Notes under the pieces: generated by a model
What the model was told of the DNA's origin: nothing
Seen by the model: the letters and a program-made list of their open reading frames with translations, nothing else
The model's database searches: none
In this document: one piece after another, positions 6 to 57,792 of the stretch
How positions within the stretch are numbered: the first letter of the stretch is position 1
Layout: every line of letters starts with the position of its first letter
Translations under genes and position numbers: made by a program
Origin: a virus
Direction: 5' to 3' (one strand)
Length of the DNA stretch: 64,000 bases
Virus record (IMG/VR): IMGVR_UViG_3300036820_000003
Span: 32,001 to 96,000 of that record

Positions 6-1202
6 GTGTCGTCCTCCCGTCCGTACGCCCGTGACCTGGAGAACGGGCTGACCCGCCAGGAGGACGCCCGGGCTCAGAAAAGGCGCGAGGCACTGGCCGA
101 GGCACTCCGGGAGGAGGGTCGGCTCGCGGCGGCGGCGAAAAATGCAGACTCCCCAGGCGTAAACAGCCCGAGGGAGGACGCTGAGGAGGCGGCGGCGGAC
201 CTGGCCGCGCGCCGGGCGGGCTGGAGGGGGCCGGAAAAGGCCCTGGGAGCCACGCTGAGCCCCCTGGAGGGGCTGGGCGGCACAATCACCCCGGAGGCCC
301 CCCTGAAGCCCGCTACGGCCCGCTCAGAGCCTCTGACGGATATCCCGACTGTCAGCCCTCAGATCAGGAATCCGAAATCGGCGACTTCCGGCGGGAAGGC
401 CCCGTTCGAGATCCGGGTCGAGCCGTGGATCCCGGCCGGATGGTCGGTCACGCACACCGAGCCCGTGAAGCCCGAGGCCCCGGAGACCCTCGACGACGTG
501 TTCGCGGAGATGCGGGAGGAGCTGGCTGCGGCGGTGCCGGGCGGCGGGGGCCAGGATGCCGTTTCCGAGGCCGCAGGGACCCCGCAGGCGGGTGCGGAGG
601 CCCCCCCGCGTGTAACGGGCGGGGGCGGGGGTCCCGAGGCTTCTGAGGGCCTCTCCGAGGCTGCGGAGCGGAAGACGTGCTCGCAGTGCGGGCACGAGCG
701 AGGGCTGGGGCAGTTCCAGCGCGACAAGCGGGCCTCGGACGGACGCAGGCCCAGCTGCAAGATCTGCACGGCGCGATATGACGCGATGAGGCGAAGTCTG
801 CGGAAATCCGCGAAAAAGGCGGTTGACGTCGCGATCGAGGCGGGTGAGGACGCGAAAAAGGCGGTTGAGGCGGAAATCGTGGCTCCGCCTCCTGAGAAGC
901 CGATTCCCAAAAAACCGGTCGCGCCCTTGAAGATCGTCAAGACCCCGAAGCCGGTGAAGGTCGTCAGGCCGGCTGACCGGCCGGTCGTGCTCCAGAAGAT
1001 CTTCCGGCCCCCGGTTGAAGACGAGATCCCCGAGCTGGAGGAGGATCTCAGCCTGCGGAAGTGCAGGTCGTGTCACGTGGGGAAGTCGGAGGAGGCGTAC
1101 TACACCCGAGCGGACGGGAGAATCAGGTCGGTCTGCAAGGAGTGCGAAATCCGGGAAAGCCGCGAGCGACGGATCGCGAGGAAGCTCCGTGAAGTTCTCT
1201 GA
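6..1202 (+). CDS. Low-complexity protein with two CxxC...CxxC zinc-binding modules
   Basis: KTCSQC...PSCKIC and RKCRSC...VCKEC modules, like the N-terminal Zn modules of phage HNH/EndoVII proteins; no catalytic domain seen; may be 5' truncated. Confidence 0.65.
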   Translation: MSSSRPYARDLENGLTRQEDARAQKRREALAEALREEGRLAAAAKNADSPGVNSPREDAEEAAADLAARRAGWRGPEKALGATLSPLEGLGGTITPEAPLKPATARSEPLTDIPTVSPQIRNPKSATSGGKAPFEIRVEPWIPAGWSVTHTEPVKPEAPETLDDVFAEMREELAAAVPGGGGQDAVSEAAGTPQAGAEAPPRVTGGGGGPEASEGLSEAAERKTCSQCGHERGLGQFQRDKRASDGRRPSCKICTARYDAMRRSLRKSAKKAVDVAIEAGEDAKKAVEAEIVAPPPEKPIPKKPVAPLKIVKTPKPVKVVRPADRPVVLQKIFRPPVEDEIPELEEDLSLRKCRSCHVGKSEEAYYTRADGRIRSVCKECEIRESRERRIARKLREVL

Positions 1203-1239
1203 GCCCGAGCCCGGCCCGGGGGCTGACGGCGACCCGGAG

Positions 1240-1902
1240 ATGTGGGTTGACGATCTGGCCGAGCCGATCCGGGCACATGAGGCTTGCCCGGAGTGCGGGT
1301 GCTCGGGGATGTCGTCAGTTGTCCGGTTCATCCCGGTGGACGCGGACGGCGGCGGGATTCTCACGCCGGAGGACTATGCACGGCGCAGGAAACGTGCTAT
1401 GCTCGAACTGTCGCGGGAGCTGGAGCGGGAAGCGGCCGAGGGACTGGACCCGGTTGACGTGTGGCTGGGGGATGAGATCGTCATGCAGGTTCTCGGACTT
1501 TCGAACGGGACCTGGAGGGCGACGATCATCGCGACCGGCGGCAACTTCGGGCAGACGAGGGTGAAGTACGGACGGGGGAGCCGGGCGCACGGGGCGAAGT
1601 CCTGGAGACACGCGCTTGCTCTCGCAAGCGCTGCGACCGAGGTCACGACCGAGGCCGAGAAGATGAACGGGATCCGGGCTTTCGAGGGGGAGCCCGGAAC
1701 CCTGATGTTCAGGAAGCAGCAGCTGAGTCACTACACGCCAGACCGGATCACGGAGCAGCAGAGAATCGAGCGGAATCTGCGGGACCGGCTGTCCCCGACC
1801 ACGGCCTGGGAGCGGCACGGCAAGCCGCAGGACAGACGCAGAAAGGCTCGGGAGGCGGCGCTGGAGTTCAGTGAAAAGCCCCCCTCAGGAGGGGAATCCT
1901 GA
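1240..1902 (+). CDS. Hypothetical protein (N-terminal CPECGC)
   Basis: ORF following the previous gene; start uncertain (GTG 1189 possible). Confidence 0.6.
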   Translation: MWVDDLAEPIRAHEACPECGCSGMSSVVRFIPVDADGGGILTPEDYARRRKRAMLELSRELEREAAEGLDPVDVWLGDEIVMQVLGLSNGTWRATIIATGGNFGQTRVKYGRGSRAHGAKSWRHALALASAATEVTTEAEKMNGIRAFEGEPGTLMFRKQQLSHYTPDRITEQQRIERNLRDRLSPTTAWERHGKPQDRRRKAREAALEFSEKPPSGGES

Positions 1903-4749: not shown

Positions 4750-5115
4750 TCACATGGCCGGAGGATCCGACGCGGGGTGCTCGGGCTCGGGCTCGGAGGC
4801 TGAAGGAGGATCCGGCACATTCCACACCGTCGTCTGGCCGAACAGGATCATCCGCAGCGCGGCCTGCATTCTACCAGCTCGGTATGAGGGTCCGATGACG
4901 GGGTCAGACAGAGCGCACTGATCGCAGATAAGACTCTCGATCATCCCCTCGACCTCCGGGGGCATCACCTGGTCAGCCTGGACCCACACCGGCAGGTCGC
5001 ATTCCCTGCACGCGCCCCTGACGACGGTTAGGATCTCGAGGCCCATCAGCGGGTTGTCCTCTACGCGACAGCAGACGCGGGTGCGAGTCTCAGGTTCCGG
5101 TGCGGGGTCGCTCAT
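4750..5115 (-). CDS. Hypothetical protein with CxxC pairs
   Basis: CREC, CDQC motifs. Confidence 0.6.
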   Translation of the reverse strand: MSDPAPEPETRTRVCCRVEDNPLMGLEILTVVRGACRECDLPVWVQADQVMPPEVEGMIESLICDQCALSDPVIGPSYRAGRMQAALRMILFGQTTVWNVPDPPSASEPEPEHPASDPPAM

Positions 5116-5425
5116 TCCATTCCCTCTGGTAGTCGGCGGCCAGCTTGTCGATCTCGTTTTCGGATGGAGGCTTGAGCGCGAAGCTGCGCTCCATATGCTC
5201 CTCCAGCAGCTTGAGCGCCGCCTCCAGGCGACTCACCTGCCACAGGAGCCGCTGCATGTCCTCGACTCCCGCCTCCGCGATCTCCCGGGCTCCCTGCGGC
5301 GGCTCCCCCAGCAGCCACCACGCATCCAGGATGTCGCCCAGTTCGGACTCGATGAAGCCGTCCGGCATCGACTCAAGCGACTCCGCCAGCTCCCGGAGCC
5401 TGTGAATTACCTGGCTTTTTGTCAT
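5090..5425 (-). CDS. Hypothetical protein
   Basis: RBS before MTKSQVIHRL; helical protein. Confidence 0.65.
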   Translation of the reverse strand: MTKSQVIHRLRELAESLESMPDGFIESELGDILDAWWLLGEPPQGAREIAEAGVEDMQRLLWQVSRLEAALKLLEEHMERSFALKPPSENEIDKLAADYQREWNERPRTGT

Positions 5426-5825
5426 CTCGCCGCCTTCCCTTCCTTGATTGATGCGCCGGGCGACGTGCCCGGAAGTCACGGCGCTGCCACTTGTAGCGAA
5501 GCGCGGAGCGAAGCCGGAGGAAAGGGTACACGAACGTCCGCAGAAAAGGCCAGATGACATATCGTCCGAACGTGCGCCGGAACAGCCTGCGGAGGAAAGC
5601 CCGGATTCTGCGAGGCTTCACGTGCCCGATGTGATAGTGCAGCCGGTACGAGCGACCGTTTTCGAACACCGGCCCCCAGCGACATTCGTAAGGCGTGATC
5701 ACCTGAGCCCGCCGGGTGTCGCGGATGAGGCGGCCGACCGCGATCCACGCCTCACCACGAGTGGAGTAGGAACGTTTCCGCAGATGGGAGTACATCCACC
5801 GCTTACGACGCTTCTTGACGCTCAC
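5373..5825 (-). CDS. Basic hypothetical protein
   Basis: ORF overlapping both neighbours. Confidence 0.5.
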   Translation of the reverse strand: MSVKKRRKRWMYSHLRKRSYSTRGEAWIAVGRLIRDTRRAQVITPYECRWGPVFENGRSYRLHYHIGHVKPRRIRAFLRRLFRRTFGRYVIWPFLRTFVYPFLRLRSALRYKWQRRDFRARRPAHQSRKGRRRDDKKPGNSQAPGAGGVA

Positions 5826-6126
5826 TCAGCAGCTCCGTCCCCTCCGCCAGCAGGCTCAGCATCTCGGCGGGGAACTCCAGCTCGAAGTCGAACTCCCGGA
5901 CGGGGAATCCAGAGTCGAGGGAGCGAATCCACTGCTCGCGATCGGCGGGATTATACACCCGATAGTGAACTTCCCACGGCGGCGGCAGCACGATGTTGAT
6001 CGCGTGCTCAAGGACGGCGACCCTGCACCGGGGGAACAGACGGCTGACCGCCACCTGGATCGGACAGCTTCGCGCGTCACCCCGACACCCCTCGTCGGGA
6101 TCGACGTGAACCTGAACCTTCGGCAT
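5803..6126 (-). CDS. Hypothetical protein
   Basis: GGAAGGAG RBS. Confidence 0.7.
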   Translation of the reverse strand: MPKVQVHVDPDEGCRGDARSCPIQVAVSRLFPRCRVAVLEHAINIVLPPPWEVHYRVYNPADREQWIRSLDSGFPVREFDFELEFPAEMLSLLAEGTELLSERQEAS

Positions 6127-6205
6127 ACCCCATTCTCCTTCCTGGCGGACTCAGCCCGCTCCGCCGACCGCCTCGAACGAGGCGGGCGACGGGCCGGGTT
6201 GAGGC

Positions 6206-6457
6206 CTACTTGAAGGTGACCTCCCAGGTGCCGTTGTCCAGACGACGCGGCGGGTGCTTGTCCATGCTGAGCTTTTTCGCGTCCAGTTTGAGGTACTCTG
6301 AATGCGAGACGATCTTGTGCTTGGAGTTCTTGGAGCTCTCCTCCTTCAAACGCTCGAACTCCGCCGTCCTGGCGTCGTGCCGATCGTTGCGACCCTGCTG
6401 ACCGCTCTTGCGGAGCTGCTCAGCGGCAGCTTCCGCGATTTTCCTTCCGATTCCCAT
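6206..6457 (-). CDS. Hypothetical protein
   Basis: GGAAGG RBS. Confidence 0.65.
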   Translation of the reverse strand: MGIGRKIAEAAAEQLRKSGQQGRNDRHDARTAEFERLKEESSKNSKHKIVSHSEYLKLDAKKLSMDKHPPRRLDNGTWEVTFK

Positions 6458-31893: not shown

Positions 31894-32437
31894 GTTTGCA
31901 CATGCAACTAGTTTCAGATGCCAGCGAGCCGGCCGGCTTGGTAGGGAATTGCATTCACGATCATGAATTCAGCAATTTGTCAAGCGCCTATATACACATT
32001 CATAAATGCAGCGCATTGTCAAATGCCTATGCCTGATTTGGAGGGATTTGGGGCATATGCCCGGTTTGAGTACGTTTGGGCGGGTTTGGGTGGTTTCACC
32101 AGCGGCCGGCCCCCAAACTCGCGCCCCCCGTTTTCACCTTTCATTTGCGTAAACAGCCCAATGGTATAGGCGTAAACACGTCGTTAGCAAGACTAATTGA
32201 CTGAGCGGTACAAAAAGATAACAGCAAGAAGAAACTCTTCTTGCTGTTATCAGAACGCAAAAAATACCCTTCCCTCACCTCCCGAAAGTAATAGACCGTT
32301 CGGTCCAAAGCGTAAACACCCCCTCCGCCTCAACCCTCGCCCGCAAAAAAAGAGGCCGCCCTCCCCCGGACGACCTCCTCCACCTGGAATCAAAATGCGT
32401 AAACAGCGCCAATTCACGTCACCTGACATCCAAAGTG

Positions 32438-32923
32438 TCATGCATTCCCATCCCCGTCCGACGTGATCGCCCTCAGCAGCTCAGCGTAACTCCCCTCCCA
32501 CCTCCACATAACCCCGGCCACCCTCCCGCACGCACACCAGATCCGAGCCTCAATTCCATTCACGCGCTCATCCTCGGCGAACGACCCGCCCCACTCCGTC
32601 CACACGGCGTCCGTCCAATCACATCGCTCCCAGTCCACCTCGCACCCGACCCCCGTCTCCAGACCCTGCGTCCACTCCGCAACGACTCCGAGCTGGAACT
32701 CAGTCGCGGCCGCCTCTCGAATGAACGCAGGCACATTCAGATGAGCCCCCAGCCCCATCCAGTCTCGATGACGATCCGCGTTGTAGTAACTCACTCCCGG
32801 CTCAACCGGCGTCCCTCGCTCCACAATCACCCGCAGCAAAGCCCTTCGGAACTCCGCCTTCCAACCCGACTCGCCCGCACCCGCACCCGCACCCGCACCC
32901 GCACCCGCACCCGCACCCGTCAC
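32438..32923 (-). CDS. Hypothetical protein with (GA)n N-terminus
   Basis: CCCGCA hexamer tandem repeat at about 32876-32917 encodes the GAGAGA tract. Confidence 0.6.
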   Translation of the reverse strand: MTGAGAGAGAGAGAGAGESGWKAEFRRALLRVIVERGTPVEPGVSYYNADRHRDWMGLGAHLNVPAFIREAAATEFQLGVVAEWTQGLETGVGCEVDWERCDWTDAVWTEWGGSFAEDERVNGIEARIWCACGRVAGVMWRWEGSYAELLRAITSDGDGNA

Positions 32924-32927
32924 ACCC

Positions 32928-33308
32928 TCACTCCTTCCACGTCCCTCGCAGCCTGGAAACCCCTCGCGTAAACAGCTCCGAATCGAACGCCGGGAAGCCC
33001 GAGCCTTCCCTCTCGGCCTCCCCGGCGCGTAAACAGCCCGACGTCACAGCTCCCCGGACCGCTTCCCTCAGCCTACACCACCCCCGCCCCCGACCCGTCA
33101 GCGGCCCCCCGGTAACCCACTTCCCCGAGGCACCCCCCCAGTCCTCGGCCGACATCTCCGCGATCATCTCCCACACCGGCATCGCGCCCGGACCGTCGCA
33201 CCCTTTCCGCCATCCGGTGTGCAAAGTCTCCGCCAGCAGACTCAACCGCTCCGACTCCTCCGCCCGGAAAACATCCGTTCGAAAACACTTTCGACCCGCC
33301 CGCCTCAT
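32928..33308 (-). CDS. Hypothetical protein
   Basis: ATGA overlap start. Confidence 0.45.
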   Translation of the reverse strand: MRRAGRKCFRTDVFRAEESERLSLLAETLHTGWRKGCDGPGAMPVWEMIAEMSAEDWGGASGKWVTGGPLTGRGRGWCRLREAVRGAVTSGCLRAGEAEREGSGFPAFDSELFTRGVSRLRGTWKE

Positions 33309-33541
33309 CCGATTTCCTCGAAGACGATTCGCACGACTGGCAGCACGTTCGCCGACCCGATAAGGGGCTCCAGCCGCGTAAACAGCCCCTCCGCCACGCG
33401 ACCGTAAAACTCCCAGTGCGACCCCGCCCCCGCCTCCTTCTGTCGCGCGTACCGACCGCACTTCTCCGCCATCCCGTCCCCGCACAGTTCCAGATGCAGC
33501 GCGTCCGCGAGCGACTCCGTCCCGTCAGTTCCCCCCGCCAT
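33305..33541 (-). CDS. Hypothetical protein
   Basis: One-base TGATG overlap with the pth2 stop. Confidence 0.5.
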   Translation of the reverse strand: MAGGTDGTESLADALHLELCGDGMAEKCGRYARQKEAGAGSHWEFYGRVAEGLFTRLEPLIGSANVLPVVRIVFEEIG

Positions 33542-40535: not shown

Positions 40536-41510
40536 TTAGGAGGAGGCGCTGCCCTCGTTGATGCTGAAGGAGTTGCCGGTGATGGCGCTGGGCTCCATCG
40601 TGATCTGGCTCGCTCCGTTGATGGTGTTCGCCTGGACGAGCAGCTCGCCGCCGATCAGCCGATTACGGATGCTGCCGTTGTAGTTGTCAAAGGTCGCGTT
40701 GCTGAACGTGACCAGGGGGAGGTCTGCGGGTGCGGTCAGATTGGGCGCGTTGGTGTTGTCCGCCCCGATGGCCGCCTCGAAGAAGTTCTCGGCGTTGACC
40801 CGCTCGGTGTACTGCAACTCCTTGACGAAAGTGCCCGAGGTGTTGTAGATGTCCACCGTGTACTGGATGAAGTGACGCTTCCCGGCGGGGGAGTAGTACG
40901 CGTCGAGAGTTACGGTGTCCCCCACGACGAGCGAGGTCTCGTCGACCGACGGCTGGACCTGATTGCCGGTGAACACGTAAGTGTCCGGGTCGCTGCCGGT
41001 GGCGATGCTGTTGACCCCCGTGGCGGAAGCGCCCAGTTCAGCGCCCGCCAGCTGAACGGCGGAGCCGGAGCGCAGGTTCGTCGAGCCCGGGTCGGTGACG
41101 ATGACGCCATCCTGACTGCAAGGGTCGCTGCCGGTGGCGTTCTCAGTCAGATCGCCGTATGCGCCCAGCACCTCGAACTGACCGCCCAGGAACGTGACGC
41201 CGAGCTGCGCGGCCACGTTGTCGTCGTCGTCGCACAGCTCGACGCCGGTCGCGCCGGGATAGCTGCTGTCCAGGGCGTTGTTCAGATGCATCATCGCGGC
41301 AGTGATCTTGAATGTGGCGTGTGCGTCCCTGAGGTGCCAGTTGTCCCAGTGCTCCACGTACAGGCCGGCCTCACCGGTGACGTTGCTGCTAGGACCGACG
41401 ACGGGAGCCGCGCTGGCCGCCGGAGCGAGGAAAGCCGAACCGCCGAGAGCCGCGACTGCGACGCCGGAGGCGATCAGCCTTGAGCGCCTGTTGTTGTACT
41501 TGCTGGACAC
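40536..41510 (-). CDS. Secreted beta-rich protein (weak resemblance to the G1/A4 peptidase fold)
   Basis: Signal peptide ending ASA-A; SSNVTG start of mature part; GTG start with GGAAGGA RBS. Confidence 0.75.
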   Translation of the reverse strand: MSSKYNNRRSRLIASGVAVAALGGSAFLAPAASAAPVVGPSSNVTGEAGLYVEHWDNWHLRDAHATFKITAAMMHLNNALDSSYPGATGVELCDDDDNVAAQLGVTFLGGQFEVLGAYGDLTENATGSDPCSQDGVIVTDPGSTNLRSGSAVQLAGAELGASATGVNSIATGSDPDTYVFTGNQVQPSVDETSLVVGDTVTLDAYYSPAGKRHFIQYTVDIYNTSGTFVKELQYTERVNAENFFEAAIGADNTNAPNLTAPADLPLVTFSNATFDNYNGSIRNRLIGGELLVQANTINGASQITMEPSAITGNSFSINEGSASS

Positions 41511-41617: not shown

Positions 41618-42397
41618 CTATGCCTGAGTGGGAACCACCGCGAGCGCCATGTCCTCGGCTACCTCACGGTAGTTGGACACCCGGTCGAAGTAGTAGGCGT
41701 GAATCCAGGAGTGAGTCTTGGCGATTTCGACGTACTGGCTGTACGCCTCCTTGCCGGTGCCGTCGCCCAGGATGCCGACGGCCCACACCTCATCCCACTC
41801 GCCGTGGGAGCCGAGACCGTTCTTGAGCGTCGCCTGGGCGAGATACGCCTGGAATGCCTGCGCGTCGGCTAGCGCGCCGTCGGACAGGAGGATCCGAGCG
41901 CGAACCGGACGCTCGGCACGATGGGTGCTCCCGAACTCCGACATGTAGTGCGCGTCGCCGGCGCGGATAGCCGCCATGATCTCGGTTCCGCCCTGCGGCT
42001 TGCCGTCCTTGAAGTACTTAGCGACGAACGCCTGCATCTTCTCGTCGAAGTTGGAGGAGTTCAGATCGCCGTCGTCGTCCCCCTCCCCGATAGGGCAGAA
42101 GATGTTGCTGAACGGGTAGGTGTAGACTCCGCCCTTGTCGTCGTCGCCGTCGGACTGCTCGGCGGCAGCCTGGCTGTCCAGCTGCTCGAAGGGAATGATG
42201 ATCTCTCGCAGCGCCGCCACCTGCACATCGTAGGTGTTGACCGAGGAGTCGCTGGCCCAGGGCCAGCCTTCGGACTCCGACACGTCGAAGTAGATCTCCG
42301 GCTCTACCTCCCGAGGTCCGGTGAGCAGCGGTACGATGCGCTCGCGCGGAGTGCGATCCGGCCCGCCGGTCGGTGTTTCCGTTCTGGTGATTAGCAC
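41618..42397 (-). CDS. von Willebrand factor A domain protein
   Basis: MIDAS residues DVSES, GGT, LLSDG. Confidence 0.75.
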   Translation of the reverse strand: MLITRTETPTGGPDRTPRERIVPLLTGPREVEPEIYFDVSESEGWPWASDSSVNTYDVQVAALREIIIPFEQLDSQAAAEQSDGDDDKGGVYTYPFSNIFCPIGEGDDDGDLNSSNFDEKMQAFVAKYFKDGKPQGGTEIMAAIRAGDAHYMSEFGSTHRAERPVRARILLSDGALADAQAFQAYLAQATLKNGLGSHGEWDEVWAVGILGDGTGKEAYSQYVEIAKTHSWIHAYYFDRVSNYREVAEDMALAVVPTQA

Positions 42398-42479: not shown

Positions 42480-43703
42480 CTAAGGGAGCGACGGCAGCGT
42501 GACGCCCGCCTCCTGCAGACGGGTTTTGATGTGATTGATCAGATGATACAGATCCCTGCAGTAAACGGACGGATTGTCGAATGATCCGACTCCGTTCTCG
42601 GTCGTCATGTAGCGATTCGGATAGTAGCCTCCTCCGCACACGTCGAAGACGGGACAAGTCTGGCAGACGGCTGACGGAGCGGGAGGCGTGTACCCCGGAT
42701 GGAGGGCTATCTGGTCAAGGGTGGAGGTTCGAACTGAGAGACCTGTGGCGGAGCCTCCGTCCGCTGTGGAGCGGAGAGCGTCCAGCAACTCGGCGGAGCC
42801 GTCGGCGTTCACCGCGAGGGAACGAGATCGAGGCGGAGGGCCGATGAAGCCGGCGCGCACATCGCGTCCCAGCAGACGACTGATGATGATGCGGAAGAGG
42901 CGGATCTGAGGGGCTCCCGGATCCAGGTACCAGGCGTCGAAAATATTTTCGAGCCAATCAGACGTCCCTGCGGCAGGAGGGCGATCCCATGTCTTCAGGC
43001 GAGGCAGCAGATCCAGCATCGGCGGGGACTGCGAGCGCAGGAACCTGTACGTCTCCACGGGATCGGAGTCGAGATTGACCACCGCCAGCAGACCCCCGTA
43101 ACTGGAAGTCCAGCGCGGGGAGCGCAGCAGGGCGAGGGCGTCCAGAACCTGAGACGTCGAGGAGGATCCGCTTTTGAAGGGACGATGCGAATTCTGGGCG
43201 TCGTTGCCGTCCAGGCTCACGCCGAAGCGAATCCCGGCTGGCGCGAGCGTCGTCAGCATGTCCTCGGTGAGGAGCGTCGCGTTGGTCTGCATGCTGAAGG
43301 TGAGAGTGGTTCCGGGGGGCGCCTCCGCTTTGAACGCGCTGACGATGTCGAGGATGCGAGCGGGACCCGCCAGCAGCGGCTCGCCTCCGTGCAGGATGAC
43401 GCGGAAGCGAGGGACGCTGTGGGAGCGCAGGTAGGTGCCCAGACGCGCCGCGAGGGTCAGGTAGATCGAGGGGGATATGAATCTGGGCTGGACGAGCCAG
43501 CTAGTATCCGCGAGGGAGTACATGTAGCAGTAATCGCAGTCCAGATTGCAGCGCGACGCTATCTTGAGCACAAGCTCGCTAAATATCGGAGTTGAAGGGG
43601 GTGTCGGGACTGATCTTCGACTGGAAGAGGGAATCAGGGGCTGAGTCGTTTTCGTCTCTGATCGCGTTGTTGAAGGGGTAGATATCCGGGCTGTCGCTTC
43701 CAC
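42480..43703 (-). CDS. fxsB: FxsB-family cyclophane-forming radical SAM/SPASM peptide maturase
   Basis: LVLKIASRCNLDCDYCYMY, LHGGEPLL, MQTNA, GVSLDG, CQTC...CGGGYY.NRY, FDNPSVYCRDL; GGAGGAG RBS. Confidence 0.88.
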   Translation of the reverse strand: MEATARISTPSTTRSETKTTQPLIPSSSRRSVPTPPSTPIFSELVLKIASRCNLDCDYCYMYSLADTSWLVQPRFISPSIYLTLAARLGTYLRSHSVPRFRVILHGGEPLLAGPARILDIVSAFKAEAPPGTTLTFSMQTNATLLTEDMLTTLAPAGIRFGVSLDGNDAQNSHRPFKSGSSSTSQVLDALALLRSPRWTSSYGGLLAVVNLDSDPVETYRFLRSQSPPMLDLLPRLKTWDRPPAAGTSDWLENIFDAWYLDPGAPQIRLFRIIISRLLGRDVRAGFIGPPPRSRSLAVNADGSAELLDALRSTADGGSATGLSVRTSTLDQIALHPGYTPPAPSAVCQTCPVFDVCGGGYYPNRYMTTENGVGSFDNPSVYCRDLYHLINHIKTRLQEAGVTLPSLP

Positions 43704-43752
43704 AAGAGGTCTCCTCCAGGATGACGGCGAGGGGGGTGATGGCGATGGGCAT
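43579..43752 (-). CDS. fxsA: FxSxx-COOH (FxsA-like) RiPP precursor, 57 aa, three cores (not in ORF track)
   Basis: MPIAITPLAVILEETSCGSDSPDIYPFNNAIRDENDSAPDSLFQSKISPDTPFNSDI*; GAAAGG RBS; ends in FNSDI. Confidence 0.85.
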   Translation of the reverse strand: MPIAITPLAVILEETSCGSDSPDIYPFNNAIRDENDSAPDSLFQSKISPDTPFNSDI

Positions 43753-43776: not shown

Positions 43777-44580
43777 CTATCTGAGGGTGCGGGTGTCGAT
43801 GAGGCGGATGTTGGAGTCGTTGCCGTCGTAGTGCAGGCCGGTCACCAGGACGGGAGGGGCGTTGACCAGAGCGCGCTCGTGCAGCGTCTCGTGGAAGAGA
43901 TGATAGTGCCCGTGGAACACCCGGGTGACTTTGGTTCTGATGGCGATGTCCTGCAGGAGCCGGGAGTGCTGACGCGCGATGTGAATCATCGGCTTCCAGG
44001 ACTCGTGCGGGCGCGGGAGCGACGGGACCCAGCAGTCCGGCACGTCATGCGAGAGCAGCACGTCGGCCGGTCCGTCGGCGATGATTGAGTCGGCCTGCTC
44101 GCGGGTGATCTGCTCGTCCGGCCACCAGTCCACCCCCTCGGTTCGAGAGTGACGATCGACGCTGACCGCGCCTCCGACCGCGAGCCAGGTCTTCGAATTC
44201 CAGTTCCAACGAGTGCCGCGAGGGAGATAGCTGATCGCTTGGAATCCGCGCAGTCGCAGCGGGTAGTCGTGAGGCTGCTCGTAAGCTGCGAGCAGCTCTT
44301 GGATTTCGGGCCACCACTCGTGATTCCCGTCGATCCACCACAGCTCCATCCCGAGTTCGACCAGAGCGTTGTCGAGCTGCTGGATGGGCATGAGCCCGGC
44401 GGTCCAAGCGGCGGGCTCCATCAGCTTGAATCCGAAGTCGCCCAGCTGGATGACGATCTTCCGAGTCTCCCCGGCCTGGGCGAACTGGCCGTCGAGAGCC
44501 TCCAGGGCGTGCAGGGTCCACTTCAGATTCCCGTGCACGTCGCCGAGGAGTCCCACGAACTCGGGATCCTTGTCTTCCAT
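43777..44580 (-). CDS. Calcineurin-like metallophosphoesterase
   Basis: GDVHG, GDFG, GNHE, SHD, HGHYH. Confidence 0.88.
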   Translation of the reverse strand: MEDKDPEFVGLLGDVHGNLKWTLHALEALDGQFAQAGETRKIVIQLGDFGFKLMEPAAWTAGLMPIQQLDNALVELGMELWWIDGNHEWWPEIQELLAAYEQPHDYPLRLRGFQAISYLPRGTRWNWNSKTWLAVGGAVSVDRHSRTEGVDWWPDEQITREQADSIIADGPADVLLSHDVPDCWVPSLPRPHESWKPMIHIARQHSRLLQDIAIRTKVTRVFHGHYHLFHETLHERALVNAPPVLVTGLHYDGNDSNIRLIDTRTLR

Positions 44581-44664
44581 TCGTCCTTCCGTCCTTCCGT
44601 GGGAGGGGGCGGGCTGCGCCCGCCCCCTCACTATATACCCGCGTGCGCGCGTGCGCGCGGGGGA

Positions 44665-45387: not shown

Positions 45388-45472
45388 TGCGTTCCTTCCG
45401 GGTGCTTGCGTTTGCCGCACTTTTAGTGTACTGGCGGGGAGGTGGCGCGTAAACAGCTTTGACGGGGTTGAG

Positions 45473-45647: not shown

Positions 45648-45721
45648 CGCGGGGTGGTGCAGTTAGGTGGCACGCTGGGCTCATAATCCAGAGGTCGGAG
45701 GTTCAAATCCTTCCCCCGCAA
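45648..45721 (+). tRNA. tRNA-Met(CAT), initiator type
   Basis: CGCGGGG/CCCCGCA acceptor stem with C1:A72 mismatch, CTCATAA loop, GGTTCAAATCC T-arm; no encoded CCA. Confidence 0.92.
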
Positions 45722-45746
45722 CTAGGTTGACAACTGAATACGTCAG

Positions 45747-45828
45747 GCCAGGTTGCCCGAGTGACCAAAGGGAGCGGACTGTAAATCCGTCGACGTAGTC
45801 TACCCAGGTTTGAATCCTGGACCTGGCA
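45747..45828 (+). tRNA. tRNA-Tyr(GTA)
   Basis: GCCAGGT/ACCTGGC stem, CTGTAAA loop, long variable arm. Confidence 0.9.
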
Positions 45829-45906
45829 CGAGGGTCATCTCGCTAGAGCTCTGACACCAGTGTCAAGCAGGCCCCTGATCGTTCAAGTCGAGGCAGAAGC
45901 CTGCCT

Positions 45907-45977
45907 GCGGATGTAGCTCAATGGCAGAGTTCCAGCTTCCCAAGCTGGTTACGCGGGTTCGATTCCCGTCATCCGCT
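45907..45977 (+). tRNA. tRNA-Gly(CCC)
   Basis: GCGGATG/CATCCGC stem, TTCCCAA loop, GGTTCGATTCC T-arm, U73 discriminator. Confidence 0.93.
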
Positions 45978-45995
45978 CGGAAAGGAAGGTGGAAG

Positions 45996-53742: not shown

Positions 53743-54315
53743 ATGGATCTCGTTTATCTGGCCGGGGCTCCCGCCGTCGGCAAGTCGACTCTGATGGCCA
53801 GGCTGACTGAGGGCGCTGAGCGGGTGGCTCGAGCTGACGTGAAGCTGGTGCCCTACGACGAGCTGAGGGTTGCGGGCGAGGTTGTCGGGGCGGAGATCGG
53901 GAAGCGTCGGGTGAACTTCCCGGGGACTGATTCGCTTGCGATGAACGCTCTGCCGAACGTCGCTAAATGGCTCGACGCGAAGATGTTCGACGTGGTGTGC
54001 GCGGAGGGGGATCGTCTGACGCACGTGCGATTCTTTGGCTCGGCGGCGGACGCCGGGTACTCGGTGCACGTTTTCCTGCTGCGAGCGCCAATGTCGGTGC
54101 TGGATCGGCGATGCGAGGCGCGAGGGTCGAACCAGAGTCGGAGCTGGCGGCTCAGCCGGGTGACTCTGGGCGAGCGGGTGGCGGCCTGGGCCGAGGCCGA
54201 GGACAGGATCTCGATGCACTACCTCGATTCTCAGAGACCTGTCACGGAGCTGGCCGAGGAAGTGCGACGGGCTGTGCCCGCGATGGAGATTCTGCGTGAG
54301 CGGGTGGCTGGCTGA
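53743..54315 (+). CDS. P-loop nucleotide kinase (putative 5-hydroxymethyluracil DNA kinase)
   Basis: YLAGAPAVGKST, EGDRL, R..RC..RGS.Q; context next to the transferase and TET/JBP genes. Confidence 0.75.
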   Translation: MDLVYLAGAPAVGKSTLMARLTEGAERVARADVKLVPYDELRVAGEVVGAEIGKRRVNFPGTDSLAMNALPNVAKWLDAKMFDVVCAEGDRLTHVRFFGSAADAGYSVHVFLLRAPMSVLDRRCEARGSNQSRSWRLSRVTLGERVAAWAEAEDRISMHYLDSQRPVTELAEEVRRAVPAMEILRERVAG

Positions 54316-55574
54316 TGGCTGCCGCCGCTGTTGTGAGGACCCCGGGAGTGCGACTGGGCTATCGAGTTGCGGACTCCATTATCGAGCGCGACATTGAAGG
54401 TCGGACCTTGGGGGAGGACGACTACGACTGGCTTCTCACGGGCGGACCGCTGATGGTCAGGAGTCCGGAGGGGGCTCCGGTGGCGTGCTATCTGCCAGGG
54501 GTTTTGAAGGGCGTCATGGCCGAGGTCGACGCTTACCGGCTGCTGCATCCCCTGCACACGATGATGACGAACAATCGAGGCAAGGCGTCGGGTACGCGAC
54601 GGATCGCCCGGGGGGACGGGGACGGGACGAGGAGCGACTCCGTCTCGATGTCGAGTCCCACTATCGGGTCGGCGGATCCAGGGTCGGTGTACCGCTACTG
54701 TCGCATGACGGAGTGGACCGGGGCGCATCTGCCGGAGTGGGAGGCGCTGGCTCCCCTGTTCCGGGTGATTGCGAGTCATCTTGAAGAGCGAGTTCCGGAG
54801 CGATACAACGCCCAGATGGAGTACGTCCGGAAGACGAATGAAGCGTGGGTGGTGCCGGGAACGCCGTTCACGACGATCACGGTGAATAACAGTTACTCCA
54901 CCGGGGTGCACAAGGATCAGGGCGATCTGGAGGCCGGGTTCTCGACGCTGGCGTGCGTGCGTCGCGGCGAGTACTCGGGCGGCGTGCTGGTCATGCCGCA
55001 GTATAGGTTCGGCGTGGACATGCAAGACGGTGATCTTTTGCTGATGGACGCGCACCAGTGGCACGGGAACACGCGAATGACGTGCGCCTGCGGCGAGCGG
55101 ATTTTCAATCGATTCTGCGGGGTATGCGGCGCGGAGCGGATTTCGCTGGTGTGCTACTATCGGACTCGGATGGCGGAATGCGGGAGCCCTGCGGACGAGC
55201 TGGAAAGAGCGCAGGTAAACACCGAGAAGCGATCCCAGCCGCGCGTCGGACAGGATATCATTGACGCTGCCGCGTCAGTGATGCCGATTCCGATTGCAAA
55301 TCCTGACCCCGCCCCTGATGACGGGGGGGCTTCAATTGCAACTGTGCCTGCGGCGCCGATTGTCGACGAACTTGAGGCTCCCGCCAAGAGGCGCGGTCGT
55401 CCCAAGAAGCAGGTCGGGGTGCTCGACGTTGAGGTTGAGGTTGAGGCCGCGAAGCCGGAACCTGTCGTCAAGCGTCGGGGTCGGCCGCGCAAGGTCGCTG
55501 AGCCTGATAAGATCGCAGTGGCCAAGGCCGATTTGATGAAGTTTGATCCCGTGACCGGTGAGCCTTTGGAGTGA
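54315..55574 (+). CDS. TET/JBP-family 2OG-Fe(II) dioxygenase with C-terminal AT-hooks
   Basis: FTTITVN, HKD, GG.L, DGD.L..DAH.WHGN, ERISLVCYYR; tail KRRGRPKK and KRRGRPRK. Confidence 0.85.
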   Translation: MAAAAVVRTPGVRLGYRVADSIIERDIEGRTLGEDDYDWLLTGGPLMVRSPEGAPVACYLPGVLKGVMAEVDAYRLLHPLHTMMTNNRGKASGTRRIARGDGDGTRSDSVSMSSPTIGSADPGSVYRYCRMTEWTGAHLPEWEALAPLFRVIASHLEERVPERYNAQMEYVRKTNEAWVVPGTPFTTITVNNSYSTGVHKDQGDLEAGFSTLACVRRGEYSGGVLVMPQYRFGVDMQDGDLLLMDAHQWHGNTRMTCACGERIFNRFCGVCGAERISLVCYYRTRMAECGSPADELERAQVNTEKRSQPRVGQDIIDAAASVMPIPIANPDPAPDDGGASIATVPAAPIVDELEAPAKRRGRPKKQVGVLDVEVEVEAAKPEPVVKRRGRPRKVAEPDKIAVAKADLMKFDPVTGEPLE

Positions 55575-55577
55575 GGA

Positions 55578-56120
55578 GTGAGTGGAATGGGTCGTCGAAC
55601 CGAAACGATGGAACGCGACGCTAAGATGTACTTGCGTCACACCAACAACATCCCGCACGACGCGATCGCGGCTGAGTTCGGGGTGTCGCTTGCTACTGTC
55701 GCGACGGGGATTCGACGGGCCATCCAGGACACCTTCAGGCTGTCGGCTGAGGAAGAGCGCCAGGTCGTGGACGATAGACTTTTGTATTTGGAGCGTCGTC
55801 TGCGGGTGATGGCCTCCAATAAGCACTATCGCGTTTCGGTTTCAGGGAAGGTCGTCGTCGATCCGATGACCGGGGAGCCGTTGCTGGACGACGAGCCGGA
55901 GTATCGGGCTCTGATGGCCATCTCGAAGATCGAGGGGCAGCGCAGCAAGCTTCTCGGACTCGACATGCCGGTGCGTCATCGAGTCGAGATCACCGACAAG
56001 ATGGACGAGGAGATCGAGAAGCTCGCGATGGAGCTTTCGATCCACGGCGCTGGCGAGAAGGTAGAGCCGGAGCTGCCGGTGGGGACGGGAGTCGTTGATG
56101 GTGACGGTAGCGACTCCTGA
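55578..56120 (+). CDS. terS: Terminase small subunit
   Basis: N-terminal HTH; position before terL; R.KLLGLD.P. Confidence 0.75.
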   Translation: MSGMGRRTETMERDAKMYLRHTNNIPHDAIAAEFGVSLATVATGIRRAIQDTFRLSAEEERQVVDDRLLYLERRLRVMASNKHYRVSVSGKVVVDPMTGEPLLDDEPEYRALMAISKIEGQRSKLLGLDMPVRHRVEITDKMDEEIEKLAMELSIHGAGEKVEPELPVGTGVVDGDGSDS

Positions 56121-57792
56121 TCCTGGGGGGGAAGAGCCGGAGAAAGGCGATCTGCCTCCGGATTGGCGGGATCTCAGTCCCGAGGCCAAGAAGGCCCTGC
56201 TGCATAAGCTCAAAGGGAAACACATCTCTTTGGGACTGGGCGGACCGCGCAAGTGGCGGGCTCTGGCGCGACCCAAGCAGCTGAGTCCAGATGATCCGGT
56301 GCATCATCTGCCGGACGGCAACGGGTTCGCCTGCGCGTGCGGGGCGCTGGATAGTAGCTTCAACATCTGGATGTTCATGGCCGGCCGAGGCTGCGGGAAG
56401 ACCTGGGCCGGATCCAACTGGATCATCGAGCAGGCGCTGAAAAACCCGGGGACCATGTGGGCCGTCGTGGCTCCCACCTTCCGCGACGTCCGAGTGACTT
56501 GCTTCGAGGGACCGTCTGGGATACGCCGTCAGCTAGAACCAGGTGAGGAAGACCAATGGCGACGCAACGAGTTGCGACTCGACCTGGTGAACGGCTCGAT
56601 TCTCTACGGGTACTCGGCTGACCAGCCTGAGCGACTTCGCGGGAGTAATCTTTCAGGTGCTTGGTGTGACGAGATGGGCTCGTGGCAATATGAGGAGACC
56701 TGGTACGAAGGGCTGGTTCCCGCTCTGCGTATTGGCGAGCATCCCCGTGTGATGGTAACCACCACTCCTCGTCCCACCAAGCTGGTGCGCGATCTGTACG
56801 GACGTCGCGACGGGACGGTCCACATCACCACCGCCTCGACCTGGGAGAACGCCGCAAACCTTTCCGCCGCAGCTCTTGACGAACTACGTCGTCGGTACGA
56901 GGGAACGCGCCTGGGTCGTCAGGAGCTTGAAGGCGAGCTGCTGGAGGACCTTGAGGGGGCTTTGTGGAAGCGATCCGACATCGACGCCGCGCGAGTGCGG
57001 CTGGGGGATGTGCCGGATCTGATCCGGGTGGTTGTCGGGATTGACCCGGCTGTCACCTCGACCGAAGAGAGTGACGAGACCGGAATCATCGTCGCGGGGG
57101 ATGACGGGCATGGTCACGGCTACGTGCTGGCGGACTACAGTATGAAAGGGTCGCCTGAGGCGTGCATGCGGGAGGCCGTCCGGGCATACAAGCGTCACGG
57201 GGCTGACTGCATTGTCGCGGAGGTGAACAACGGCGGTGACTTCATCGGAGCGGTGGTTCGTGCAGTTGACCCGGATGTGCCATATCACACCGTGCGAGCT
57301 AGCAGGGGTAAAGCTCTCCGAGCTGAGCCTGTTTCTGCTCTTGCTGAGCAACGGAGACTTCACCACGTAGGCAACCTGCCCGAGCTGGAAGATCAATTGT
57401 GCGCCTACGTGCCCGGAATAGGCGACTCGCCTGACCGGATGGACGCGCTGGTCTGGGCGGTCTTCGAGCTCAAGGGATTGAGTCAGGCCTCGTGGCTGTC
57501 GGCCTACGGAGCCTGTCGCTGCTCGGGATGCGACCACGTGTACACCTCGCATCTTAAGGAGTGCCCGCGCTGCCGGACGGCGAATCCGGCGGAGGCTGAG
57601 CGGATTGCGGCTCGGGAGCGAGATGAGCCGACGGAGGAGGAGCCTGTCGTGGGCGGCTGGGCGTCGGTTTATCACCTGCGTCGCTGCGAGCGAGGGCACG
57701 CCTACCCCGAGAAAATGGGGGCCGGGGGATGCCCGCGCTGCCGATCGGACGGACTGGGTTTTTTGAAGTCGGCCGGTCGCGCTGTGCGTTGA
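56095..57792 (+). CDS. terL: Terminase large subunit
   Basis: AGRGCGKT, W.DE, VMVTTTPR, R...ELEGE, VGIDPA, SPDRMDA. Confidence 0.95.
   Translation: MMVTVATPDPGGEEPEKGDLPPDWRDLSPEAKKALLHKLKGKHISLGLGGPRKWRALARPKQLSPDDPVHHLPDGNGFACACGALDSSFNIWMFMAGRGCGKTWAGSNWIIEQALKNPGTMWAVVAPTFRDVRVTCFEGPSGIRRQLEPGEEDQWRRNELRLDLVNGSILYGYSADQPERLRGSNLSGAWCDEMGSWQYEETWYEGLVPALRIGEHPRVMVTTTPRPTKLVRDLYGRRDGTVHITTASTWENAANLSAAALDELRRRYEGTRLGRQELEGELLEDLEGALWKRSDIDAARVRLGDVPDLIRVVVGIDPAVTSTEESDETGIIVAGDDGHGHGYVLADYSMKGSPEACMREAVRAYKRHGADCIVAEVNNGGDFIGAVVRAVDPDVPYHTVRASRGKALRAEPVSALAEQRRLHHVGNLPELEDQLCAYVPGIGDSPDRMDALVWAVFELKGLSQASWLSAYGACRCSGCDHVYTSHLKECPRCRTANPAEAERIAARERDEPTEEEPVVGGWASVYHLRRCERGHAYPEKMGAGGCPRCRSDGLGFLKSAGRAVR

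Follow-up and report, generated by a model that had tools for sequence, protein, structure and literature searches.

A predicted two-gene, three-core triceptide-type peptide cassette in a large, apparently virulent soil actinophage

The window analysed in this study is a stretch of viral DNA of 64,000 nucleotides (nt), corresponding to positions 32,001 to 96,000 of the IMG/VR record IMGVR_UViG_3300036820_000003. Between positions 42480 and 43752, on the minus strand, a small open reading frame (ORF) resembling a peptide precursor is directly followed by the gene of a radical S-adenosylmethionine (SAM) enzyme with a SPASM domain. A preliminary description drawn from the sequence letters had proposed that this locus encodes a cyclophane-containing RiPP (a peptide made on ribosomes and modified after translation), made by an FxsB enzyme from a precursor with three FxSxx-like cores. 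We found the small ORF of 57 amino acids (aa) with a translation identical to the one in that description, and its three tandem cores are FNNAI, FQSKI and FNSDI, the last of which is C-terminal, at the stop codon. The exact 57-aa protein is on record as P0121 in a public protein collection, and therefore at least one gene caller has predicted this ORF.

The small ORF and the radical SAM gene

The features of the pair are as follows.

43579..43752, minus strand: precursor-like small ORF of 57 aa plus stop, with an ATG start and a TAG stop, encoding a leader and then three F-x-[SN]-x-I units
43720..43737, minus strand: candidate leader recognition motif TPLAVI, residues 6-11, proposed from the rarity of TPL..I and its position
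43660..43674, minus strand: core 1, FNNAI, residues 27-31, with a predicted link of Phe27 to the C-beta of Asn29
43612..43626, minus strand: core 2, FQSKI, residues 43-47, with a predicted link of Phe43 to the C-beta of Ser45
43582..43596, minus strand: core 3, FNSDI-COOH, residues 53-57, with a predicted link of Phe53 to the C-beta of Ser55, ending at the stop codon
43569..43581, minus strand: junction read from the sequence, consisting of the small-ORF TAG, a 7-nt gap and the enzyme GTG, with no Shine-Dalgarno sequence before GTG 43571
42480..43571, minus strand: FxsB-like radical SAM/SPASM cyclophane synthase of 363 aa, P0001, assigned from TIGR04269, NF041707, PF04055 and structure 9gm3
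43527..43550, minus strand: radical SAM cluster motif CX3CX2C, Cys8, Cys12 and Cys15 of P0001, invariant in the alignments
42558..42665, minus strand: auxiliary-cluster cysteines Cys303, Cys306, Cys312 and Cys338 with CGGG, invariant in the phage clade and in bacterial FxsB

The motif pattern of the small ORF is far beyond chance. Across all six reading frames of the 129,940-bp genome (220,638 translated residues), F-x-[SN]-x-I occurs 30 times. Three of these occurrences fall in the small ORF, a number reached by no other segment, and an F-x-[SN]-x-[ILV]-stop end is likewise found nowhere else. When the residues of the ORF were shuffled 200,000 times, three motifs arose in a fraction of 1.5e-5 of the shuffles. 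Precursors of triceptide systems are recognised by aromatic-x-x motifs adjacent to the enzyme, and three such units, unique in the genome, are encoded here 7 nt upstream of it; a C-terminal F-x-S-x-x-COOH next to an FxsB-type gene, the mark of FxsA, is likewise present as FNSDI-stop directly upstream. The GC content of the ORF at the first, second and third codon positions is 0.47, 0.43 and 0.79. These properties suggest that the peptide is translated and point to it as a predicted precursor. Family searches with Pfam, NCBIfam and PHROG returned no match for the 57-aa peptide, a search of 5.8 billion proteins found only the peptide itself, and one of 1.84 billion representatives found itself and P0122 (1286 aa). 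The latter was rejected as a homologue, being the artefactual translation of a tandem repeat.

The gene downstream encodes an enzyme that looks intact from its sequence. In addition to the cluster-binding cysteines, which all align with those of the cyclophane synthase ChlB, a GGEPLL motif is invariant across the phage-clade and bacterial sequences. The top NCBIfam model is FxsB (TIGR04269; 6e-95, 318.3 bits, profile positions 1-362 of 363), followed by YhhB (NF041707; 8e-83, 278.4 bits, below its cut-off of 445), and then by XyeB (4e-27, 95 bits), anaerobic sulfatase maturase, AmcB and DynA. Among solved structures, the radical SAM domain of ChlB (9gm3; E 7e-60, residues 2-354) is closest, so that homology to characterised cyclophane synthases (FxsB, YhhB, XyeB and ChlB) extends over the full length. 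Searches against PHROGs and PADLOC gave generic matches to the radical SAM core alone (phrog_1802; viperins).

The nearest relatives of the enzyme, P0002-P0019, are 48-55% identical and lie largely on contigs of about 56-215 kb, while actinobacterial proteins named FxsB at NCBI are 41-46% identical. A search of 185,579 species, each represented by one genome, gave a top match of 44% identity, and the hits listed all belong to Actinomycetota. In a tree of the best 80 hits, a 26-row clade containing the phage enzyme is split from the 54 rows holding every named FxsB, with a Shimodaira-Hasegawa-like approximate likelihood ratio test (SH-aLRT) value of 100. This deep separate clade, together with the best bacterial identity of 44%, led us to reject a recent capture of a host fxsB gene. 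As for the preliminary description's own proviso that the enzyme might cluster with non-RiPP families, the tree places it as sister to the FxsB clade, and its best families are cyclophane synthases.

Counterparts in phages and bacteria

Searches of IMG/VR yielded three further loci with a full-length relative of the enzyme at 41-50% identity (L001, L002 and L003). Two of them, L001 (a 101-kb record) and L002 (a 132-kb record), as well as the 15-kb contig L009, have several other genes in common with this phage at 40-60% protein identity, and judged from these shared genes the four are members of a distant phage lineage. The GC content across these phages ranges from 0.51 to 0.65, and the pair has therefore persisted in phages of different hosts. 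A tblastn search of 50,697 deposited phage records found no full-length relative of the enzyme, only partial matches to the radical SAM core at less than 60% identity.

The preliminary description had suggested a search for similar pairs in other phages, and this search was productive: a multi-motif aromatic-x-S/N/A sequence lies directly 5' of the enzyme in all three of L001, L002 and L009. In L001, an ORF with FNSAA, FVSSD and FSAAL as well as TPLERI ends 41 nt before the enzyme start. In L002, the corresponding ORF (946-1386, plus strand) ends 1 nt before the enzyme start and contains two TPLGKI units, each followed by aromatic-x-S/N/A motifs; it seems to be one gene encoding two leader-core cassettes. 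In L009, about 40 aa are added in frame to the N-terminus of the enzyme ORF itself (5064-6329, plus strand), and this extension has the motifs FNA and FQQ but not TPL..I. Its segments SPATYGFN and AFQQ align with SPDIYPFN and LFQS of the window, which belong to cores 1 and 2, and the extension may be either a natural fusion of peptide and enzyme or an assembly indel. A programmed +1 frameshift fusing peptide and enzyme at the ATT-TAG junction of the window, a possibility prompted by the L009 fusion, was considered and dropped, as no supporting signal was found.

The leader motif recurs in these phages. TPL..I occurs three times in the six-frame translation of this genome, once in the small ORF, and in L001 and L002 it is found exclusively in the ORF directly upstream of the radical SAM gene. 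A related pattern, [VIT]PL..[ILM], is present at a fixed distance of 32-36 residues before the Phe in 13 of 49 bacterial FxsA peptides, which were collected from loci fetched with the enzyme alignment. The recurrence hints at TPLxxI as a candidate shared recognition element.

The phage loci also bear on a different use of the enzyme. In phage M6, a radical SAM enzyme similar to spore photoproduct lyase (SPL) takes part in thymidine hypermodification (PMC8989533), and by this precedent the enzyme of the window might serve modification of the phage DNA rather than maturation of a peptide. However, the M6 enzyme is SPL-like and not a SPASM peptide maturase (PMC8989533), whereas the enzyme studied here aligns end to end with peptide cyclophane synthases. 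It is encoded on the opposite strand and in another transcription block than the putative modification genes, and its companion in L001 and L002 is the small ORF, not a set of modification genes. We rejected a hypermodification role on account of the SPL-like nature of the M6 enzyme, and regard it as barely credible.

The 49 bacterial FxsA peptides provided the reference for the number of cores. Their commonest tail is FNSSI-stop, with FQSSI, FNSAL and similar variants. A single F-x-[SNA] is present in 38 of the 49, and six more have a stray F-x-[SNA] in the leader in addition to a single C-terminal core. A tandem double motif, FNSFxSSI, stands at the C-terminus of the remaining five, and none has three cores. 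Two-core FxsA peptides therefore exist in bacteria, and the earlier statement that bacterial precursors typically have one core holds in that none of the 49 has three, but one core is not universal (5/49 double). A bacterial FxsA subtype ending in C-[NG]-F-[NS]-S-F-x-S-S-I was seen at the metagenome loci L044, L056, L070 and L086. The third core of the phage peptide resembles the tail of bacterial FxsA, and its five-residue pattern recurs internally in cores 1 and 2.

In bacterial loci, FxsA is encoded beside FxsB, which often has an HExxH hydroxylase domain, and beside the TIR-like FxsC and the ParA-like AAA/TPR protein FxsT. For example, FxsC, FxsT and HExxH are all present at L104, FxsT at L108 and an HExxH extension at L160. 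The preliminary description had noted that these partners are lacking in the neighbourhood of the phage pair, and the absence extends to the whole phage genome, in which FxsC (both domains), FxsT and HExxH had no match at E up to 1. Likewise, FxsT and HExxH were not found in the records behind L001-L003. Compared with FxsA/FxsB (MscA/MscB), the phage pair has the same cysteine pattern, a precursor directly upstream, an F-N-S-x-I-COOH end and a predicted bond from the Phe ring to the C-beta two positions on, but it differs in its three spaced cores, its separate clade, a leader that falls off the bacterial profile and the lack of HExxH, FxsC and FxsT. To our knowledge, neither triceptides nor FxsAB have been described outside bacterial chromosomes.

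Other known systems share single aspects of the pair. ChlB (PDB 9gm3/9gmc) forms several three-residue cyclophanes per precursor, and neither in ChlB nor in the phage enzyme is a separate RiPP-recognition-element domain evident; ChlB, however, is a bacterial fused radical SAM/HExxH protein acting on Tyr motifs such as YDR, with an active alpha-ketoglutarate/HExxH hydroxylase domain that the phage enzyme lacks (Morishita et al., 2024; Ruel et al., 2025; both as cited in PMC12912966). Single enzymes that install several aromatic-x-x rings on one precursor are also known from XyeA/XncA, GrrA/OscA and MicA/minviopeptin, but the motifs are others, the genes are chromosomal and the enzymes are distant (XyeB 95 bits, GrrM 66 bits). 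The anti-phage system HXS (HxsA-D; PMC13128918) resembles the pair in that radical SAM enzymes mature a protein with aromatic-x-Ser repeats in the setting of phage-bacterium conflict. HXS is nevertheless a bacterial defence with a periplasmic effector, two radical SAM enzymes and HxsD, and the HxsB model matches the phage enzyme weakly (38.5 bits; cut-off 370).

The predicted cassette and its maturation

From these comparisons, we consider it likely, though well short of certain, that the pair is a minimal two-gene, three-core triceptide-type RiPP cassette of a large, apparently virulent soil actinophage. By analogy with the characterised systems, we infer that the peptide is the substrate of the enzyme and that the chemistry is a Phe ring to C-beta cross-link. 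A link from Phe C4 to Ser C-beta is described for MscB of the FxsB family (Nguyen et al., Nat Chem 2020, as summarised in PMC11002830), and one from Phe C4 to Asn C-beta is known for XncB/OscB (PMC11002830). Because Phe-Ser and Phe-Asn links are both known, cross-links are predicted at all three cores. The 57-aa peptide would be translated from ATG 43752 and the enzyme, by coupling, from GTG 43571. The enzyme would then bind the N-terminal leader of the peptide, with TPLxxI as a candidate contact, and its [4Fe-4S] cluster and SAM would generate a 5'-deoxyadenosyl radical as in MscB/FxsB, XncB, OscB and ChlB. This radical would abstract the C-beta hydrogen at Asn29, Ser45 and Ser55, and each of these carbons would join the Phe ring two positions earlier. 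The expected product has three small cyclophane rings, with a loss of 2 Da per ring and 6 Da in all.

Several observations weigh against this assignment. On the peptide side, the match to the FxsA model proposed as a check in the preliminary description did not materialise, since TIGR04268 (cut-off 28 bits) gave no match at E up to 1; this model is narrow, and a typical bacterial FxsA from L040 scores just 14.5 bits. Nor was the phage peptide singled out from 3,965 six-frame segments by a profile that we built from the 49 bacterial FxsA sequences. The peptide resembles the upstream ORFs of the related phages only marginally (shuffle p values near 0.04, 0.04 and 0.35), and BLASTP between the precursors of the phage clade is weak or silent. 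The number of cores modified is also a point of caution, three rings being a prediction by analogy. On the enzyme side, the score of 318.3 bits does not reach the TIGR04269 cut-off of 370 bits, whereas bacterial FxsB proteins from L104 and L160 score 572 and 584 bits. The earlier designation as an FxsB enzyme thus stands as regards the best family and the intact cysteines, but not as regards membership: the enzyme falls below the FxsB cut-off and within a sister clade, and is FxsB-like rather than a threshold member of FxsB.

The start of the enzyme is a further point of this kind, with GTG 43571 and GTG 43703 as the two candidates. The first in-frame GTG, 43703, would give a protein of 407 aa (42480-43703) overlapping the small ORF by 125 nt in another frame. 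A strong Shine-Dalgarno-like sequence, GGAGGAG, lies 8 nt before it (43704-43722, minus strand) inside the small ORF, and the F-[ST]-E-L kept at the N-termini of homologues is encoded in the window just upstream of GTG 43571. These two observations, together with the lack of any significant homologue of the peptide in two very large protein sets, would fit a genuine enzyme that acts on something else. The small ORF would then be untranslated or would not serve as substrate, and the enzyme, starting at GTG 43703, would modify a host FxsA or another phage protein. On the other hand, the GC content at third codon positions in the overlap is 0.73 in the small-ORF frame against 0.45 in the radical SAM frame, with 0.77-0.88 in neighbouring genes, and the 44-codon extension from 43703 is Ser/Thr/Pro-rich with no counterpart in any homologue. 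GGAGGAG coincides with the Glu-Glu codons of the leader, which explain it. Moreover, chance is very unlikely to account for the motif statistics and the C-terminal FNSDI-stop, and equivalent ORFs stand at the same place in related phages. An enzyme without this substrate is therefore, in our judgement, very unlikely. The public gene call, P0001, gives 363 aa from GTG 43571, 7 nt past the small-ORF TAG. Because of this call, the codon-position GC and the lack of a homologous counterpart to the extension, GTG 43571 is most likely the enzyme start, and the TAG-7 nt-GTG junction suggests translational coupling.

Genomic setting and possible roles

The record is a complete single virus genome of 129,940 bp with direct terminal repeats, rated 100% complete, and the window lies inside it. 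A PHROG search identified the large terminase at 56095-57792 of the window, which also encodes a portal-MuF-NUDIX fusion of 1449 aa. The claim that the pair resides in a phage is borne out by these genes and by the completeness of the record. No tyrosine or large serine recombinase (PF00589, PF07508) was matched in the genome, other recombinase types not being covered by this search, and since none was detected the phage is probably virulent. A single sequencing run, from a soil metagenome that is perhaps the source sample, contains this DNA over its full length, and the sequencing-run search listed no RNA runs holding it. A megablast comparison of 8 kb with the 50,697 deposited phage records gave no match.

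The leftward arm, from about 2 to 45 kb, is dense with small genes, and structural genes run rightward from about 46 kb. A trio of tRNA genes, Met-CAT, Tyr-GTA and Gly-CCC, lies at 45648-45978 on the plus strand where the arms switch; in L009, a tRNA-Met gene lies just upstream of the enzyme gene. Just before the terminase, a 419-aa protein (54315-55574, plus strand) matches phrog_24024 at 3e-48 and, weakly, a queuine tRNA-ribosyltransferase PHROG at 1e-6. The features around the pair are listed below.

45447..45457, minus strand: copy of an 11-mer upstream of the four-gene block, a candidate promoter or operator
43777..44631, minus strand: metallophosphoesterase immediately upstream of the pair, with phrog_1649 at 1e-35 and PF00149
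42435..42445, minus strand: copy of the 11-mer shortly past the enzyme stop, with the next gene 38 nt further on; the block probably ends here
41618..42397, minus strand: downstream neighbour, probably a vWA-domain protein, with D-x-S-x-S and SDG motifs resembling a metal ion-dependent adhesion site, not conserved beside the enzyme in relatives

The 11-mer, GCTGTTTACGC on the minus strand and GCGTAAACAGC on the plus strand, has 16 copies in the window at up to one mismatch against 0.65 expected. Fifteen of them point the same way and none lies beyond 46 kb; the sites include those at 157, 12848, 32147-33386 (six sites), 37908, 39469, 42435 and 45447; four copies are accompanied by a TTTCCAG-like string 10-15 nt downstream. 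A scan for sigma-70 consensus promoters between 41.5 and 45.7 kb found no site. Judged from this distribution, the 11-mer is probably a phage promoter or an operator or regulator site for leftward genes. Four genes lie between the copies at 45447 and 42435 and form a block; they encode a 251-aa protein of unknown function, the phosphoesterase, the peptide and the enzyme.

The metallophosphoesterase had no tblastx match in L001, L002 or L009. As the flanking genes are not conserved beside the enzyme in relatives, the conserved module is the peptide-enzyme pair. The 41618-42397 protein had no match in Pfam, NCBIfam, PHROG or PADLOC, and an Atlas feature search scored vWA clusters at 0.95, which is a lead only; published work connects bacterial FxSxx peptides with vWA-MoxR systems. 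The second gene downstream of the enzyme, at 40536-41510 (minus strand), encodes a protein of 324 aa that matches no family and whose N-terminal segment resembles a signal peptide. No protease, exporter, transporter or immunity family was matched in the four genes scanned around the pair. Because the genome has no Fxs partners and the scanned neighbours include no protease or exporter, the product of the cassette would be expected to act inside the infected cell or to be freed at lysis.

Release at lysis would suit an antibacterial or signalling peptide, that is, a bacteriocin-like weapon or a phage-to-phage signal as in temperate Bacillus phages, and lysis would free such a peptide without an exporter. 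Precedents exist in phage-borne biosynthetic clusters, which are mostly for bacteriocins (bioRxiv 10.1101/2020.10.01.322628), and in phage peptide signalling (PMC12360287). The closest parallel is sublancin on SP-beta and similar phage clusters, in which a ribosomal peptide and a modifying enzyme are likewise encoded on a phage genome (bioRxiv 10.1101/2020.10.01.322628). However, phage-borne clusters are found almost entirely in temperate phages, where the lysogen gains; sublancin-type clusters have immunity and export genes, arm the lysogen and use other chemistry. Here, no integrase of the types searched was found, and the block contains no recognisable gene for immunity, export or a leader protease. 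In addition, once its host has lysed, a phage gains little from killing. We regard this role as unlikely.

Action inside the cell would accord with counter-defence or signal mimicry. FxsAB has been predicted to belong to conflict systems of multicellular actinomycetes, in which the peptide would be an antiviral molecule or an alarm coupled to TIR-ParA-driven cell death, and comparative genomics predicts that FxsAB peptides act with immune systems (PMC7159879; bioRxiv 10.64898/2026.10.19.760177). A phage FxsA-like peptide might jam, pre-empt or falsely trigger the suicide-type FxsC-FxsT (TIR-ParA/TPR) system of the host. In favour of such a role, bacterial loci place FxsA beside FxsB-HExxH, FxsC and FxsT, whereas the phage keeps the peptide and the cyclase alone, without any effector or sensor partner. 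The third core, FNSDI-COOH, is like the host-type FNSSI-COOH tail, and the cassette sits among leftward, early-type small genes. On the other side, the immune role of bacterial Fxs systems is itself a prediction, and mimicry presupposes an Fxs cluster in the host. The phage enzyme clade is old and divergent rather than a recent capture from a host, and the profile of bacterial FxsA misses the phage leader. It is possible, though doubtful, that a virulent actinophage lineage has long kept an FxsA/FxsB-like pair as a mimic, whose triple-ring peptide would silence or hijack an alarm or apoptosis pathway of the host.

What is new here is a phage-borne, partner-less, three-core FxsAB-like triceptide cassette, which, as read from the genome, is a strong lead rather than a result. 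The pair would be a rare instance of RiPP chemistry in an apparently virulent phage, and it offers a compact, easily expressed two-gene system for a triply stapled peptide. If the peptide is indeed a mimic, it would be the first RiPP to act as a viral counter-defence factor and would provide the first functional handle on the bacterial Fxs system. The pair may be seen as a natural experiment, in which a phage-derived reagent makes the question of whether the Fxs peptide is an immune signal directly testable.

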